A stretch of 64,000 nt of DNA from an uncultured Micrococcales bacterium (GTDB lineage: Bacteria > Actinomycetota > Actinomycetes > S36-B12 > UBA10799), in contig CALFYG010000089.1 of NCBI GenBank assembly GCA_937952095.1, forward strand, positions 1,114 to 65,113, in the 5' to 3' direction. Positions 28,458 to 49,053 of this stretch are shown in pieces. The notes below the pieces were generated by a model. That model saw nothing but the letters and a program-made list of their open reading frames with translations, did not search any database and was not told where the DNA came from. A program made the translations under genes and the position numbers. The first letter of the stretch is position 1; each line of letters opens with the position of its first letter.

Positions 28458-29633
28458 GTGCCTGTGGATCCGCTCGAGTCGCTCTTCTGGGTCATCCTCG
28501 TGGCCGCGCTGGCGCCGGTCGTCGCGCGGGTGCTCCCCGGCAAACTTCCGGGGGTCGTGTTCATGCTCATCGGCGGAGTGCTGATCGGCCCGGAGGTCCT
28601 GGCCAACGCTGACCCCGATGACATGTCGTTGTTGTCCACGATCGGGTTGTCTTTCCTTTTCCTGCTGGCCGGGTACGAGCTCGAGCCGACGCTGATGCGG
28701 CAGACGCCGGGCAGGATCGCGATCCGTTCGTGGTTCGTCAGTGCCGCGTTGTCCGTCGCGGTGACGGCGGTGCTCTACGAGGCGGGTGTCATCACAGACT
28801 TCGTGGCGATCGCCATCGGACTGACGACGACCGCCCTGGGTACCCTGCTTCCCATCGTGCGTGACGCGGGGATGCTGGACGGACCGCTGGGCCCCTACAT
28901 CTTCGCCGCCGGCGCGGTGGGGGAGTTCCTTCCGATCGTGGCCATGGCCCTGCTGCTCACCTCGTCCGGGCCCATCGCGGGGGTGTTCGCGCTGGTCGGG
29001 ATGGCCGGTGCGACTCTGCTGGCGCTGCTGCTGATCCGATGGGTGAAGCGTAAGGGCTGGAGTGAGCGTCTGCGGCTGCCCGAGGAGTCGACGGGCCAGA
29101 CCACTCTGCGCTGGACGCTGGTCCTGCTCGCGGCGTTGGTTCTGGTCGCCGACGACTTCGGCCTCGATGTCGTGCTCGGAGCCTTCCTCGCCGGCGTGGT
29201 GCTGCGGCAGTGGTCGCCGGTCTCGGCCGAATCGCTGGAGCGCAAGCTCGAGGCCGTCGGATACGGCGTCTTCATCCCGATCTTCTTCGTGACCTCCGGC
29301 ATGCGGCTCGACGTCATCTCGATCATGGAGAACCCTGGGCGCCTGTTGCTCTTCTTCGTGTTGCTGTTCGTCGTGCGCGGACTGCCCCAGTTGGTCATGT
29401 ACCGCGGGCACCTGGATCGTGTTCAGCGGTGGCAGATGGTGTTCCTGACGGCCACGGCCCTGCCGTTGCTGGTGGCACTGGCCGACGTGGGCACCGCGTC
29501 CGGTCTCATGCTTCCGGAGAATGCAGCGGCGCTCGTCGGGGCAGGAGCCCTGTCGGTCCTGGTGTTCCCACTGGTGGCCACGACGATGAGGGCGGCCCCG
29601 GCCGGCGAATCCGTCGAGACGGCCACCGGCTGA
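28458..29633 (+). CDS. cation:proton antiporter (Kef/CPA2-like)
   Basis: LPGVVFMLIGGVLIGPEVL...LSTIGLSFLFLLAGYELEP. About 11-12 TM helices. GTG 28458 chosen as start. Confidence 0.78.
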   Translation: MPVDPLESLFWVILVAALAPVVARVLPGKLPGVVFMLIGGVLIGPEVLANADPDDMSLLSTIGLSFLFLLAGYELEPTLMRQTPGRIAIRSWFVSAALSVAVTAVLYEAGVITDFVAIAIGLTTTALGTLLPIVRDAGMLDGPLGPYIFAAGAVGEFLPIVAMALLLTSSGPIAGVFALVGMAGATLLALLLIRWVKRKGWSERLRLPEESTGQTTLRWTLVLLAALVLVADDFGLDVVLGAFLAGVVLRQWSPVSAESLERKLEAVGYGVFIPIFFVTSGMRLDVISIMENPGRLLLFFVLLFVVRGLPQLVMYRGHLDRVQRWQMVFLTATALPLLVALADVGTASGLMLPENAAALVGAGALSVLVFPLVATTMRAAPAGESVETATG

Positions 29634-34247: not shown

Positions 34248-34282
34248 AGAGGGGGTGCATCGCGGGGGGGTGCACCCCCTCT
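34248..34282. promoter_or_regulatory. perfect 12-bp inverted repeat in the divergent RR / secernin-like intergenic region
   Basis: AGAGGGGGTGCA-N11-TGCACCCCCTCT, 47 nt upstream of ATG 34329. Confidence 0.35.
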
Positions 34283-34328
34283 TGATGTTTCGCTACAACC
34301 ACGTGCCGCGCGGGCGCACAATGGGCGC

Positions 34329-45264: not shown

Positions 45265-46020
45265 GTGTACGACGCGCCCATCGCCGAGGTCAGCGGCGCC
45301 TGCTTCGCCGGCGACCGCCTCGTCCTCGTCGGCGACTCCGAACCGGTGCTGGCCTGGGCGACGTGGGCCGATGGGCCGGGACAGTGGCACACCCTGGATG
45401 TGTCGGCCCTGCCCGGCGCACCGTCGGACACCGGTCAGTTCGAGGCGGTCGAACACCTCGACGACGACATCGTCGTGATCCTCTGCGAGGAGCCGGCACT
45501 GCTGGTGGCCGTGGACCTGGGTGCCGAACAGATCGTGGGCTCGTGGCACCTGCACGTCGATCTGAAGGGATTGGCCAAGCCCTGGTCGAAGGATCCGAAC
45601 TCGCACGGTGAAGGCTTCTTCTTCGGCCCTGACCGGCTCTTCATCGTCAAGGAGAAGAAGCCGGCGGCGATCGTCGAGTTCGGCATCCGTGGCCAGGAGA
45701 GCATCGGGGCACCCCGCGTGGGGACCTGGCGACCACCAGCCGACGGGGAACTCAGCGCGCTGGCCTGGACCGAACTGGACCTCGAGGACGTCAGCGACGT
45801 GTGCGTGGTCGGGTCGGACATATGGCTGCTCAGCGACAAGGCCCGCTGCATGCAGCGACTCGGGGACCCGGCGACGGCACTGCCCAAGCACATCGAGAAA
45901 CCCGAGGGACTGGCGCGCACGCCGGAGGGTAGGTGGTTGGTGGCAGTGGACAACACACACGGCGAAGGGGCACTTCATGTGCTCGATGGGACTGGCCAAT
46001 ACCCCGATACGGATCGATGA
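45265..46020 (+). CDS. hypothetical protein (possibly beta-propeller/SdiA-regulated-like)
   Basis: 251-aa ORF from GTG 45265. Repeated strand-like segments. No confident family. Confidence 0.5.
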   Translation: MYDAPIAEVSGACFAGDRLVLVGDSEPVLAWATWADGPGQWHTLDVSALPGAPSDTGQFEAVEHLDDDIVVILCEEPALLVAVDLGAEQIVGSWHLHVDLKGLAKPWSKDPNSHGEGFFFGPDRLFIVKEKKPAAIVEFGIRGQESIGAPRVGTWRPPADGELSALAWTELDLEDVSDVCVVGSDIWLLSDKARCMQRLGDPATALPKHIEKPEGLARTPEGRWLVAVDNTHGEGALHVLDGTGQYPDTDR

Positions 46021-46391
46021 TGGACTTGTTCAGGTGGTTCGGCTGGCCGTTCCGGCACTCCCCGGTGGAAGATGGGGAACCCGATGCGGATCCACGATCC
46101 GAGGAGGATGACATCGCTACCGACGACGACAGCGAGGCCACACGGGACCGTTCCGTTCCCACGCGTGACGAGTTCTTCACGCCGATGGCACGATTCCAGG
46201 GCGAGTTCACCCCCGAGAACCTCGCGTTCGACGCCAACCTGCAGGAGTTCGCGCAGCGGGTGGCCTACCTCTGTGGGCTGGAGACGGCGGGCAAACTCAG
46301 CCCGGACGAGGCCCACTCCCGGATTCGGGACCTGTACGAGCAGTTGGCCCGCACCAAGAAGGGCCTCGGGATCGGTGAGCCGGAAGCCTGA
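46017..46391 (+). CDS. hypothetical protein with acidic disordered N-terminus and conserved C-terminal helical domain
   Basis: ATGA overlap with the preceding gene. C-terminus FTPENLAFDANLQEFAQRVAYLCGLETAGKLSPDEAHSRIRDLYEQL. Confidence 0.55.
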   Translation: MMDLFRWFGWPFRHSPVEDGEPDADPRSEEDDIATDDDSEATRDRSVPTRDEFFTPMARFQGEFTPENLAFDANLQEFAQRVAYLCGLETAGKLSPDEAHSRIRDLYEQLARTKKGLGIGEPEA

Positions 46392-46458
46392 CCCCCCTTC
46401 GACAAGACCGCGCACGTGTGCCACACTTCTGCACAACGTAGGAAGGAGGTTCGCGACG

Positions 46459-46512
46459 ATGGATTCCCGGCAGATGTGTATGTGTCGAATGATGTCCGTC
46501 GCCGGGGCCTGA
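46459..46512 (+). CDS. candidate 17-aa Met/Cys-rich leader peptide MDSRQMCMCRMMSVAGA
   Basis: GGAAGGAGG SD at 46441-46449, 9 nt before the ATG. 5 Met and 2 Cys in 17 codons. The stop abuts hairpin segment 1. Confidence 0.5.
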   Translation: MDSRQMCMCRMMSVAGA

Positions 46513-46583
46513 GCGACGATTCCTTACGTTCCCCGGCGAAGAGTCCGGGGCTTTTCTTTTCGGTGCGTCGAGCGCCCGGACTC
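46499..46583 (+). promoter_or_regulatory. candidate transcription attenuator (mutually exclusive hairpins) upstream of metY-metX
   Basis: Segment 1 CGCCGGGG (46500-07) pairs with segment 2 CCCCGGCG (46531-38). Segment 2 CCCCGG pairs with segment 3 CCGGGG (46545-50). Segment 3 GAGTCCGGG (46541-49) pairs with segment 4 CCCGGACTC (46575-83). Confidence 0.5.
46531..46563 (+). terminator. intrinsic terminator inside the metY leader
   Basis: CCCCGG-cgaagagt-CCGGGG followed by CTTTTCTTTTCGG, a T-run that is rare in this GC-rich sequence. Confidence 0.5.
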
Positions 46584-46626
46584 CCACCCATCCGGCACCG
46601 ATCCCAGAACCGAGAAAAGGAAAACC

Positions 46627-47943
46627 ATGAGCGACGCCTGGTCCTTCGAAACCAAGCAGATCCACGCAGGACAGACCCCCGACGAGACCACCAACGCGCG
46701 GGCCCTGCCGATCTACCAGACCACCAGCTACACCTTCAACGACACGACCCACGCCGCGAACCTGTTCGCCCTCAAGGAACTCGGCAACATCTACACCCGG
46801 ATCATGAACCCGACGCAGGCGACCGTCGAGGACCGGATCGCAGCCCTCGAGGGCGGCGTCGGGGCCCTGCTGGTCTCCAGCGGGCAGGCCGCCGAGACCA
46901 TCGCGATCCTGAACGTGGCGGAGGCCGGGGACCACATCGTGTCCAGCCCCAGCTTGTACGGCGGCACCTACAACCTGTTCCACTACACGCTGCCGAAGCT
47001 CGGGATCGAGGTCTCTTTCGTGGAGAACCCCGACGACCCGCAGTCGTGGCGTGACGCCATCAAGCCCAACACCAAGGCCTTCTTCGGCGAGAGCATCTCG
47101 AACCCGAAGAACGACATCCTCGACATCGAGACCGTCGCCGAGGTGGCGCACGAGTTCGGCGTGCCGCTGATCGTGGACAACACGGTGGCCACCCCCTACC
47201 TGGTCCAGCCGCTGAAGTGGGGCGCGGACATCGTCGTGCACTCGGCCACCAAGTACATCGGCGGTCACGGCACCGCCGTTGCCGGCGTGATCGTGGACGG
47301 TGGGACGTTCGACTACGCCCAGTACCCCGAGCGCTACCCCAACTACAACGAGCCGGACCCGAGCTACCACGGCCTGGTGTACGCCCGTGACCTCGGCGTG
47401 GGCTCGCAGTTCGGCGCGAACCTCTCGTTCATCCTCAAGGCGCGCGTGCAGTTGCTGCGCGACCTCGGCGCCGCGGTGGCACCGTTCAACGCGTGGCTGC
47501 TGTCGCAGGGCCTCGAGACGCTGAGCCTGCGGGTTGAGCGGCATGTGGAGAACGCGCAGGCCGTCGCCGAGTGGCTCACCACCCGCGACGAGGTGGAGAA
47601 GGTCAACTACGCGGGTCTGGAGACCAGCCCGTGGTACGAGACCGGCCGCAAGTACGCCCCCAGCGGCACCGGTGCAGTGCTCTCCTTCGAGATCGTCGGG
47701 GGCGTGGAAGCGGGCAAGGCGTTCGTGGAGGCGCTCGAACTGCACAGCCACGTGGCCAACATCGGGGACGTGCGCAGCCTGGTCATCCACCCCGCGTCGA
47801 CGACGCACTCGCAGTTGACGCCCGACGAGCAGTTGGCCGCGGGAGTGACCCCCGGTCTGGTGCGTCTGGCGGTCGGGATCGAGAACATCGCCGACATCCT
47901 CGCCGACCTCGACGCCGGTTTCCGCGCCGCGAAGCAGGCCTGA
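46627..47943 (+). CDS. metY: O-acetylhomoserine aminocarboxypropyltransferase (sulfhydrylase)
   Basis: FETKQIHAGQ..DETTNARALPIYQTTSYTF...YTRIMNPT...HSATKYIGGHG... (PLP-dependent Cys/Met metabolism family). Confidence 0.92.
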   Translation: MSDAWSFETKQIHAGQTPDETTNARALPIYQTTSYTFNDTTHAANLFALKELGNIYTRIMNPTQATVEDRIAALEGGVGALLVSSGQAAETIAILNVAEAGDHIVSSPSLYGGTYNLFHYTLPKLGIEVSFVENPDDPQSWRDAIKPNTKAFFGESISNPKNDILDIETVAEVAHEFGVPLIVDNTVATPYLVQPLKWGADIVVHSATKYIGGHGTAVAGVIVDGGTFDYAQYPERYPNYNEPDPSYHGLVYARDLGVGSQFGANLSFILKARVQLLRDLGAAVAPFNAWLLSQGLETLSLRVERHVENAQAVAEWLTTRDEVEKVNYAGLETSPWYETGRKYAPSGTGAVLSFEIVGGVEAGKAFVEALELHSHVANIGDVRSLVIHPASTTHSQLTPDEQLAAGVTPGLVRLAVGIENIADILADLDAGFRAAKQA

Positions 47944-47946
47944 GCG

Positions 47947-49053
47947 ATGAGCACCTCCGGCGGATGGCGCGAGGGTGACGATCCCGGCTGGCGGCGCTTC
48001 GCCGACCTCGGCCCGATGGATCTTGATCTCGGCGGCCGTCTGCCGGAGGTGCGCGTCGCCTACGAGACGTGGGGAACGTACAACGGCAACAACGCTGTGC
48101 TGGTGCAGCATGCTCTGACCGGCGACGCCCACGCCGCGGGTCCGGCCGGTCCGGGGCAGCCGACGCCGGGATGGTGGGACCCGCTCATCGGCCCGGGCAA
48201 GGCCATCGACACCCGGCGGTGGTTCGTCCTGTCGTCCAACGTCCTAGGTGGCTGTCAGGGAACCACGGGTCCCTCGAGCCTCGCCCCTGATGGCCGTCCC
48301 TACGGGTCGCGGTGGCCGCGCATCACCATCCGCGATCAGGTAGCCGTCGAGGTGGCGCTCGCGGATGCCCTCGGCATTGAGCACTTCACCGCCGTGATGG
48401 GTGGGTCGATGGGTGGTATGCGGACGCTGGAGTGGATCGTGCAGCATCCGCAGCGGGTGGGTACGGCTCTGGTGATGGCGACATCGGCCTCGGCGACAGC
48501 CGACCAGATCGCCACCCAGAGCGTGCAGATCCAGGCCATCGCGACCGACCCGGCCTGGCATGGCGGGGACTACTACGACACCGGGCAGGTTCCGCTGGCC
48601 GGGATGGGCGTCGCGCGCCGGATCGCGCACCTCACATACCGCACCGAGCGCGAACTCGCCGCGCGGTTCGGCCGGGACCATCAGCTCGGGGAGGACGCGC
48701 TGGCCGACGGGCGCTTCGCCGTGCAGTCGTACCTGGATCACCAAGCAGACAAGTTGAGCAAGCGGTTCGACCCCGGCACGTACGTCGCGCTGTCGGACGC
48801 CATGAGCCTGCACGACGTGTACCGGGGCAGGGGGCTCGGCGCCCTGCGTGACGTGGCGGTCCCGACACGTGTGGTCGGAATCCCGTCGGACCGCTTGTAT
48901 CCGCTGTACCTGCAGCAGCAGATCGCTGACGAACTCGGTGTGGAGCTCGACGTCGTCGATTCCCCGTTCGGCCACGACGGCTTCCTGCTCGAGGATGACG
49001 AGATCGGCCGGGTGGTCTCGGATCTGCTGGCCCCCCAGGCGACGCCCTGCTGA
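47947..49053 (+). CDS. metX: homoserine O-acetyltransferase
   Basis: LPEVRVAYETWGT...NAVLVQHALTGDAHA...WWDPLIGPGKAIDT..WFVLSSNVLGGCQGTTGPSS...GGSMGGMRTLEW. Confidence 0.92.
   Translation: MSTSGGWREGDDPGWRRFADLGPMDLDLGGRLPEVRVAYETWGTYNGNNAVLVQHALTGDAHAAGPAGPGQPTPGWWDPLIGPGKAIDTRRWFVLSSNVLGGCQGTTGPSSLAPDGRPYGSRWPRITIRDQVAVEVALADALGIEHFTAVMGGSMGGMRTLEWIVQHPQRVGTALVMATSASATADQIATQSVQIQAIATDPAWHGGDYYDTGQVPLAGMGVARRIAHLTYRTERELAARFGRDHQLGEDALADGRFAVQSYLDHQADKLSKRFDPGTYVALSDAMSLHDVYRGRGLGALRDVAVPTRVVGIPSDRLYPLYLQQQIADELGVELDVVDSPFGHDGFLLEDDEIGRVVSDLLAPQATPC

Follow-up and report, generated by a model that had tools for sequence, protein, structure and literature searches.

The metY-metX operon in a 64-kb stretch of DNA from an uncultured Micrococcales bacterium (contig CALFYG010000089.1, positions 1,114 to 65,113 of the forward strand; hereafter the window, in whose own coordinates all positions are given) is preceded by a short leader that we interpret, with a probability of roughly 0.6, as a ribosome-mediated attenuator reading the supply of charged Cys-tRNA and Met-tRNA. 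The leader combines a Shine-Dalgarno (SD) sequence, a short open reading frame (ORF) rich in Met and Cys codons, overlapping hairpins and a T-tract, and a mechanism of this kind had been put forward earlier by a reader who saw the letters of the window alone (the sequence-only reading). Comparative data support that inference: the frame of the ORF, its SD, its Cys and Met codons, the stems and the T-tract are conserved in nine sequences, and ribosome-mediated attenuation as a kind of mechanism is well supported. It is probable, at about 0.8, that the mini-ORF serves in one way or another as a sensor in cis. The sequences themselves show the ORF with its selective conservation, the mutually exclusive complementarities, the rarity of the terminator shape, and the alternation of this leader with SAM-IV riboswitches and with a recognised leader-peptide family at the same gene; its translation, the stalling of ribosomes on it, the termination of transcription, the direction of the response and the site of the transcription start are what we infer.

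The leader ORF and its conservation

A strong SD, GGAAGGAGG, lies on the forward strand at 46441-46449, 9 nucleotides (nt) ahead of an ATG (46459-61) that opens the ORF MDSRQMCMCRMMSVAGA, which closes with a TGA at 46510-12 (46459-46512 with the stop codon). Both elements can be read directly in the sequence as originally described, including the composition of the peptide: of its 17 codons, 5 are for Met and 2 for Cys. The presumed sensing codons, ATG TGT ATG TGT CGA ATG ATG (Met6 Cys7 Met8 Cys9 Arg10 Met11 Met12), occupy 46474-46494, and 114 nt separate the stop codon of the leader ORF from metY, whose ATG is at 46627, the start that had been proposed for it.

Such a composition is exceptional in its surroundings. 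Among the 1076 small ORFs of 8-41 codons on both strands of the window, the density of the leader ORF (6 Met/Cys per 8 residues) is unmatched, and at least 4 Met/Cys per 8 residues are reached only by this ORF and its nested shorter form; when the window was shuffled 20 times, no stretch of 8 residues held as many as 5 Met/Cys. The sequence-only reading had remarked on the rarity of ATG and TGT in this genome, and codon usage in metY and metX bears this out (ATG 12 and TGT 1.2 per 1000 codons). CGA is absent from the 808 codons of the two genes (0 of 42 Arg codons), and in the leader core TGT-CGA-ATG these two rare codons, CGA and TGT, are both fixed. Near the 3' end of the ORF, within the strand that we call segment 1 below, the Gly codon GGG is invariant, yet GGG accounts for 21% of the Gly codons in metY and metX.

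Upstream of the SD lies a promoter-like element (46398-46427, forward strand) composed of a -35 sequence TTCGACA (46398-46404), a 17-nt spacer and an extended -10 sequence TGcCACACT (46419-46427). It fails a scan with the E. coli consensus; TTCGAC and TGnNANNNT are kept across the clade alignments. Judged by this element, transcription would start at about 46433-46435. From the end of the -10-like box to the leader ATG there are 31 nt, with the strong SD in between.

Conservation was assessed in a survey of metY loci that took one genome per species and comprised 80 loci with 80-97% protein identity, mostly from Actinomycetota or Nanopelagicales metagenome-assembled genomes (MAGs), plus Longivirga aurantiaca. 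A pattern scan of metagenomes added three new variants of the window's leader (L081, L107 and L117) and further copies of known ones. The alignment of metY upstream regions that had been suggested as a check yielded the mini-ORF in nine distinct sequences of the window's clade, namely the window, five surveyed relatives (L001-L005) and the three metagenome variants, with a mean column identity of 79-82%. In this arrangement, type (a), the ORF has 17-18 codons and reads M-x3-4-M-C-M-C-(C)-R-M-[MI]-[SF]-x-[AV]-G-A. An SD, the frame and the stop codon are kept in all nine, as are the pairing segments 1, 2 and 3, the T-tract and the 3' end of the ORF, GYCGGGGCCUGA. The SD GGAAGGAGG itself is intact in six members, the remaining three having GGGAGGAGG, GAAAGG and GGAAGGG. 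Variation is concentrated in codons 2-5 and in the loops, and one member starts with GTG. The sensing codons are invariant except for synonymous TGT/TGC swaps and one added Cys codon, and the number of Cys codons varies by whole codons. Two further metagenome contigs, L111 (WBZT01009601.1), with a leader identical to that of the window over the 230 nt compared, and L092 (WBZL01006158.1), with a near-identical leader that shows a few differences past the stop codon, probably derive from the window's own population or one very close to it.

Two genes lie behind the leader. The product of metY (46627-47943, forward strand) scores 815 bits with NF005872 (cut-off 703) and is a bifunctional O-acetylhomoserine/O-acetylserine sulfhydrylase; that of metX (47947-49053, forward strand) scores 513 bits with NF047917 (cut-off 475) and is homoserine O-acetyltransferase. 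The bifunctionality of MetY agrees with joint sensing of Cys and Met.

Mutually exclusive pairings and predicted folds

The pairing strands that had been proposed are all present at their positions. Segment 1, given as CGCCGGGG at 46500-07, is complementary to segment 2, CCCCGGCG at 46531-38; segment 3, CCGGGG at 46545-50, is followed by a T-tract, CTTTTCTTTT at 46551-60; and segment 4, CCCGGACTC, lies at 46575-83. In our annotation, with all strands read on the forward strand, these limits extend slightly. Segment 1, UCGCCGGGG (46499-46507), covers codons 14-17 and is the 5' strand of a putative antiterminator 1:2, and the leader stop codon lies 3 nt past it. Segment 2, CCCCGGCGA (46531-46539), is common to the antiterminator and to the putative terminator 2:3 and is invariant in the nine sequences; with this strand shared, 1:2 (46499-07 with 46531-39) excludes 2:3. 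Segment 3, GAGUCCGGGG (46541-46550), contributes 46545-50 to the terminator as its 3' strand and is also the 5' strand of a further helix, 3:4, in which segment 4, CCCGGACUC (46575-46583), would be its partner in read-through RNA. The predicted energies are -21.1 kcal/mol for 1:2 (9 bp, with its inner hairpin), -12.3 kcal/mol for 2:3 and -18.2 kcal/mol for 3:4.

The intrinsic-terminator shape that had been recognized by eye was also called by a consensus scan, and a separate scan for hairpin plus T-tract found only 2 such sites on both strands of the entire 64 kb. The other is a hairpin with a T-rich tail at 34264-34290 (GGGGGGGTGCACCCCCTC TTGATGTTT). Over the nine sequences, the 2:3 pairing is maintained in 100% of cells and the 1:2 pairing in 97.5%; 7 of the 9 pairs of 1:2 never vary, one C-G pair changes to U-G, and the RNAalifold consensus is 1:2. 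The 3:4 pairing is maintained in 85% of cells and includes U-A to U-G changes.

Three further pairings involve the ORF and its SD. Segment 0 (46448-46464), consisting of the SD end, the spacer and the start codon, pairs with 46494-46509, a stretch that covers the distal codons of the ORF and segment 1, and in the fold models it could act both as an anti-antiterminator and in self-occlusion of the leader ribosome-binding site (RBS). Cognate 0:1 pairs are more stable than pairs swapped among members (p = 0.034; duplex energies -13 to -24 kcal/mol), and 84% of their cells are paired, compared with 35-55% in slid controls. Segment A, AACGUAGGAA (46435-46444), which overlaps the start of the SD, pairs with segment B, UUCCUUACGUU (46520-46530), in the minimum free energy (MFE) structure of the untranslated leader and thereby encloses the mini-ORF. 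Complementary changes in A:B occur among clade members (GUA/UAC, GCA/UGC, GCAG/CUGC and GUGGAA/UUCCAC); the corresponding swap test was not significant (p = 0.17). Finally, segment 1', GCGACG (46513-46518), folds back on 46497-46502 to enclose the stop codon in a local hairpin of about -11.9 kcal/mol, which competes with 1:2 and is weak in one member (L004). A stem embedding the stop codon looks convincing at some single loci of the wider survey (UGA/UCAG versus UAG/CCUG in L012 and L032); as a family-wide feature it gave a weak signal, with a mean z of -0.6 and p <= 0.05 at 20% of loci when duplex energies were compared with shuffles, and it was not used as evidence.

Read as a mechanism, these pairings would operate as follows. 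In untranslated RNA the SD/AUG region would lie on the 3' end of the ORF, segment 2 would be free, and hairpin 2:3 with its U-tract would terminate transcription. A ribosome reaching the UGA would cover segment 1, the terminator would form and the operon would be off. A ribosome held at the Cys and Met codons would open the closed fold and leave segment 1 to pair with segment 2; helix 1:2 would then block the terminator, RNA polymerase would continue into metY-metX, and in the read-through RNA segment 3 would pair with segment 4. The terminator conformer might add a translational layer, as its U-tract can mask the metY RBS.

The predicted folds fit much of this scheme. The MFE structure of the untranslated leader is the closed fold (0:1 with the outer helix A:B) together with the terminator in all nine members, and since the SD/AUG region pairs with segment 1, the untranslated leader is predicted to terminate. 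The full-length leader of the window appears bistable, with -71.3 kcal/mol for an ON conformer (1:2 plus 3:4) and -70.5 kcal/mol for an OFF conformer (closed fold, terminator and masked RBS). When a ribosome at the stop codon was imposed as a mask, the window's leader folded into the terminator with masking of the SD; a mask for a stalled or queued ribosome gave 1:2 plus 3:4, with the metY RBS free.

The translational layer concerns the U-tract, CUUUUCUUUUC (46551-46561), which besides being the tail of the terminator is complementary over 10 bp (46552-61 with 46614-23) to the A-rich ribosome-binding region of metY, AGAAAAGGAAAAC (46613-46625). In the 64 kb, T fills at least 8 of 11 positions in only two runs, the U-tract and a T-rich run at 28650-28660, and the A-run of the metY RBS is the only run with at least 8 A in 11. 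The helix between the two is part of the MFE structure in all nine members, and in L081 the second U-run and the first A-run, which are matching halves, are lost together. In the models, this helix may mask the metY RBS.

Other leader arrangements at metY

No known riboswitch is recognizable at the window's leader. Rfam gave no match at the gathering score in the whole window, nor in the leader (46300-46700) at E values up to 10, and the candidate that the sequence-only reading had named as a rival to be searched for was thus ruled out. An nhmmer profile of the SAM-IV aptamer (RF00634; SAM, S-adenosylmethionine), built from 28 Rfam hits, had no hit in the window at E values up to 1; by Rfam or by this profile, SAM-IV was detected neither in L001-L005 nor in the metagenome members of the clade. 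Among the other 74 relatives, SAM-IV is found upstream of metY in 55.

At 34 of the loci, type (b), SAM-IV is accompanied by a mini-ORF (e.g. L018:446-715, L012:2165-2501 and L008:1588-1859). Here the ORF has 6-13 codons, mostly 9-10, of the form M-x-CC(C)(C)-R-M-x-x-x, with 2-4 Cys codons that change in number by whole codons; it starts 35-40 nt past an aptamer scoring 93-117 bits (gathering score 38), has its own SD and is separated from metY by 61-295 nt of C-rich spacer. At one locus (L075), metY itself starts 37 nt past the aptamer, which indicates that the mini-ORF occupies the usual place of the directly regulated gene. From this arrangement the riboswitch of type (b) seems to gate a sensing upstream ORF (uORF) rather than metY directly. 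Two loci, L008 (MCCRMSGVAGV) and L049 (MRCCCRMFSPAGA), have the ORF tail and segment 1 of the window and, judged by their sequences, look like intermediates between type (b) and the window type. Other loci carry SAM-IV without a mini-ORF (type (c); e.g. L040, L053 and L022).

A fourth arrangement, type (d), lacks SAM-IV and comprises L015, L035, L037, L039, L042, L046, L055 (Longivirga aurantiaca) and L064. Its ORF has 34-36 codons, MRPRVNLVSRRFVDLRRVASQMC(M)...(V/M)RMPGCP, with 2-3 Met and 1-3 Cys codons near the end, and lies 140-310 nt upstream of metY, followed by a strong GC hairpin of 10-14 bp and UCGUCGUUCC. A TAnnnT box 6-7 nt before the ATG suggests that this mRNA is leaderless. Of four type (d) peptides scanned, three exceeded the cut-off of 27 bits for NF042934, 'putative leader peptide', a family that resembles the Cys-rich attenuators of mycobacteria (L035, 28.1; L039, 29.4; L055, 30.7), and L015 scored 19.8; all four showed weaker matches to the Ms4527A family and three to the Ms5788A family, both of Cys-rich leader peptides. 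The supposition that no annotated leader family precedes metY-metX therefore stood only in part: NF042934 does precede metY in relatives, and the window's own peptide is unmatched. Neither the window peptide nor that of L001 matched NF042934 at E values up to 10, even when extended in frame upstream. An in-frame 'VGRRF' upstream of the window ORF, akin to the 'VSRRF' of NF042934, was rejected as a meaningful similarity, as it is the SD read in that frame and is absent in L005. Rfam likewise gave no match for the other leader types.

The core TGY-CGA-ATG is common to all three ORF types. The Arg codon before the conserved Met (46486-46491 in the window) is CGA in 41 of 44 leader ORFs, and among the Cys codons of these ORFs TGT (99) prevails over TGC (25), opposite to genome usage, as is CGA. 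The core is conserved at the nucleotide level, and no pairing partner was found for it; a CGA fixed before a conserved AUG is explained neither by the needs of the peptide nor by those of pairing. In yeast, CGA codon pairs slow decoding in the A site through I-A wobble in the P site. When the folding analysis was applied to RNA up to 46552, 1:2 won only if the ribosome edge was near 46500, with free RNA from about 46501, and a leading edge at about 46501 corresponds to Met11 in the A site with CGA in the P site. We hypothesize that I-A wobble of CGA in the P site may slow A-site decoding and so make Met11 the decisive pause site.

Internal Met codons number 0.9 on average in type (b), compared with 3.3 for the window type and 3.0 for type (d), and the two riboswitch-less arrangements may share ancestry. 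Read as an evolutionary series, the window leader would descend from the Cys-rich mini-ORF that is gated by SAM-IV in relatives; in the window clade the riboswitch would be gone, Met codons would have been added and an intrinsic terminator would be present. Tentatively, we suggest a sensor swap in which SAM-IV was lost, the mini-ORF gained a promoter, an SD, Met codons and a terminator, and CGA came to serve as a slow-decoding sensitiser. In such a scenario SAM-IV plus Cys-rich mini-ORF would constitute, in the relatives, a two-input device for SAM and for Cys-tRNA/Met-tRNA, and in the window clade methionine status would be read via Met-tRNA instead of SAM. The gene upstream of the leader (45933-46391) had tblastn matches in four of the five clade genome relatives (L001, L002, L004 and L005) and at 0 of 75 other loci; with this gene confined to the window clade, a deletion of the aptamer in situ cannot be demonstrated.

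Some loci stand apart from these types. At L068:2320-2360 a mini-ORF, MIPSRLCCRMSG, precedes metY with no detectable SAM-IV and no obvious SD, and may represent another riboswitch-less derivative. Five MAG contigs labelled Cyanobium, Synechococcus or cyanobacterium (L070, L072, L077, L078 and L079) encode MetY proteins with 80-82% identity to that of the window and have neither SAM-IV nor a mini-ORF upstream of metY; horizontal transfer or mis-binning could account for them. In an unrelated organism of about 47% GC, an SD and a leader ORF, MNKRSMYMCMCMRMMCRGRRHKD, followed by a 9-bp hairpin and TTTTTT, precede a gene for a CysK-like cysteine synthase (L100:1078-1260, minus strand, and L120:1100-1300). 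This cysK leader, which had no match in Rfam, NCBIfam or Pfam, looks from its sequence like an independent Met/Cys leader-peptide attenuator.

Alternative explanations and comparison with known systems

Several results weigh against reading the window's leader as an attenuator acting through intrinsic termination. The compensatory changes looked for in the alignments of metY upstream regions did not appear in either 1:2 or 2:3, in which both stems are essentially invariant, so that covariation says nothing for or against them; for 0:1 and 3:4 it was no better in the nine sequences than in shuffles. The MFE of the whole leader is ordinary and uninformative (z = 0.23). In RNA up to 46552, the combination of hairpin 1:1' and the terminator, at -24.2 kcal/mol, is slightly more stable than 1:2, at -21.1 kcal/mol, and because the stop-codon hairpin competes with 1:2, thermodynamics alone does not settle the outcome. 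With a single ribosome footprint masked and the 5' region left free, the terminator persists. Across the clade, the two arms of the proposed switch fared unequally: a ribosome at the stop codon gave 2:3 in seven of the nine members, as had been anticipated, and a stalled ribosome gave the anticipated 1:2 in five (in two of which the RBS was still masked), the other four keeping the terminator. In addition, a canonical hairpin with T-tract between leader ORF and metY was found at none of the 34 SAM-IV-linked mini-ORF loci and not in L068; since these relatives have a homologous mini-ORF without such a terminator, the ancestral output was something else.

This last point leads to the alternative that we take most seriously, although we think it rather unlikely, namely that the same leader-ORF sensor acts on initiation of metY translation or on Rho-dependent termination and not on intrinsic termination. 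The U-tract would then mask or unmask the RBS through 2:3 versus 1:2 plus 3:4, and the hairpin would be mainly an anti-SD element. Much of what has been described fits: the U-tract and the metY RBS are among the rarest compositional runs in the 64 kb and are complementary to each other, their helix is predicted throughout the clade with a joint loss in L081, and the 34 SAM-IV-linked mini-ORFs do without any canonical terminator. The spacers behind those mini-ORFs are C-rich and G-poor (C 41-47%, G 25-27%), hence rut-like, and ribosomes stalled in a polycysteine tract reportedly block RBS-sequestering structures in the mycobacterial system studied by Canestrari and colleagues. The C/G skew is weaker (0.13) in the spacer of the window clade, however, and the stem with its CUUUUCUUUU is a textbook terminator of a shape that occurs twice in 64 kb and is present exactly in the clade without SAM-IV. 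Moreover, in several members the SD is masked in both masked states, so that a translational switch is not cleanly predicted.

Two other explanations are much less probable. The translated mini-ORF might report general translation or coupling, or yield a small Cys/Met peptide with a function of its own, for instance in metal or redox binding, and not respond to tRNA supply. Cys-rich small proteins exist, and the tail S-[VIA]-[AV]-G-A is conserved; but tail conservation extends to synonymous sites (GGG, GCC), as RNA pairing would predict, the length and N-terminus of the peptide vary freely while the fixed parts are the Cys, Met and Arg codons and the RNA-pairing 3' part, and the element always accompanies metY, alternating with a SAM riboswitch. 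We consider this quite improbable, and marginally more so an unrecognised metabolite- or protein-binding RNA with an incidental ORF, or a hairpin that merely terminates the upstream gene. The nucleotide-level fixation of UGU-CGA-AUG beyond any peptide constraint and the invariance of the stems would suit a structured RNA. Against it stand the Rfam search, blank even at E values up to 10, the distance of only about 25 nt from the promoter-like element to the SD, too short to accommodate an aptamer, and a Cys run that changes in whole codons while start, stop and SD are maintained. As to the upstream gene, its stop codon is 140 nt from the hairpin, with the conserved promoter-like element in between, and the gene itself is found in the clade relatives and at none of the 75 other loci. 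We therefore retain ribosome-mediated attenuation in response to charged Cys-tRNA and Met-tRNA as the preferred reading.

If this reading is true, methionine would become one of the few amino acids monitored by leader-peptide attenuators, and one and the same leader would respond to both Cys and Met, which belong to the same branch of the pathway. With four arrangements at one gene whose products are 80-97% identical, these loci offer a compact setting in which to follow the exchange and combination of RNA sensors; they suggest that the target of some SAM-IV riboswitches is a sensing uORF and not, directly, the enzyme gene, and the CGA-AUG leaders provide a simple test of rare-codon 'sensitisers'. 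For annotation, Rfam misses these mini-ORFs and NCBIfam also misses the window type. Our literature search found no description of a Met-codon leader peptide, nothing linking a leader peptide to O-acetylhomoserine sulfhydrylase, nothing linking SAM-IV to a bacterial uORF, and no description of SAM-IV gating a Cys-rich sensing uORF; the window's leader is apparently a real regulatory variant of leader-peptide attenuation that has not been described previously.

Among the closest known systems are the mycobacterial polycysteine leaderless small ORFs (sORFs), which are Cys-responsive attenuators (Canestrari et al. 2020, 10.1101/834739) and of which Rv2334A, Rv0815A, Rv0485A and Rv2391A have been named in M. 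tuberculosis (PMC13096801). The text of the preprint contains no occurrence of metY, metC or 'riboswitch' (10.1101/834739), and metY/metC were not among the loci named in the mycobacterial literature searched. Like these sORFs and the families NF042934, NF042933 and NF042936, the window type places 2-3 Cys codons upstream of a sulfur-metabolism gene, here metY, and the NF042934-positive relatives (L035, L039 and L055) share with it both the gene and the core CAG-ATG-TGT-(..)-CGA-ATG. The window peptide nevertheless lacks the N-terminal domain of NF042934 (..SRRxVDLxRVxSxxC); its ORF is led by an SD, with no -10 box 6-7 nt from the start codon; its Cys codons are interleaved with Met codons and do not form a run; and a canonical intrinsic terminator follows.

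The SAM-IV riboswitch (RF00634) occupies the same genomic position ahead of the same gene, whereas the window clade has no aptamer and its sensing would be via tRNA charging, not SAM. Riboswitch-controlled small upstream ORFs are known from the mgtA riboswitch plus mgtL of Salmonella. In M. tuberculosis, the Mbox/rv1805A system likewise consists of a riboswitch-controlled small uORF with Rho-dependent termination (PMC12810186). It is the SAM-IV plus mini-ORF relatives, not the window, that resemble this class, with a translational platform on a conserved uORF and a long C-rich spacer, and they differ from it in that their uORF itself carries Cys and Met sensing codons. A leader ORF with Cys codons and an intrinsic terminator has also been predicted upstream of cysS in Rhodobacterales (uORFC-8-2; Brewer et al. 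2021, PMC8632094); it resembles the window's leader in these two respects but belongs to another phylum and another gene, its two Cys codons stand in tandem, Met codons are absent, and it is unconnected with any riboswitch.

For actinobacteria, a study of 2005 that gave examples of trp and ilvB attenuators also predicted Cys-codon leader peptides for cys and cbs operons and, for methionine operons, found no RNA element (Seliverstov et al. 2005, PMC1262725). The window's leader would operate in the manner of a classical attenuator. With the classical attenuators (trp, his, leu, thr and ilv) the window leader has in common an SD-led short ORF rich in codons for the end products of the pathway, overlapping antiterminator and terminator hairpins with a U-tract, an upstream segment that sequesters the antiterminator strand when the leader is untranslated, and a similar distance (~70 nt) from the sensing codons to the terminator. 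It departs from them in sensing Cys and Met together, in having its stop codon inside or next to the antiterminator strand, in a U-tract that doubles as an anti-SD for the structural gene, and in the invariant rare CGA that precedes a conserved Met codon.

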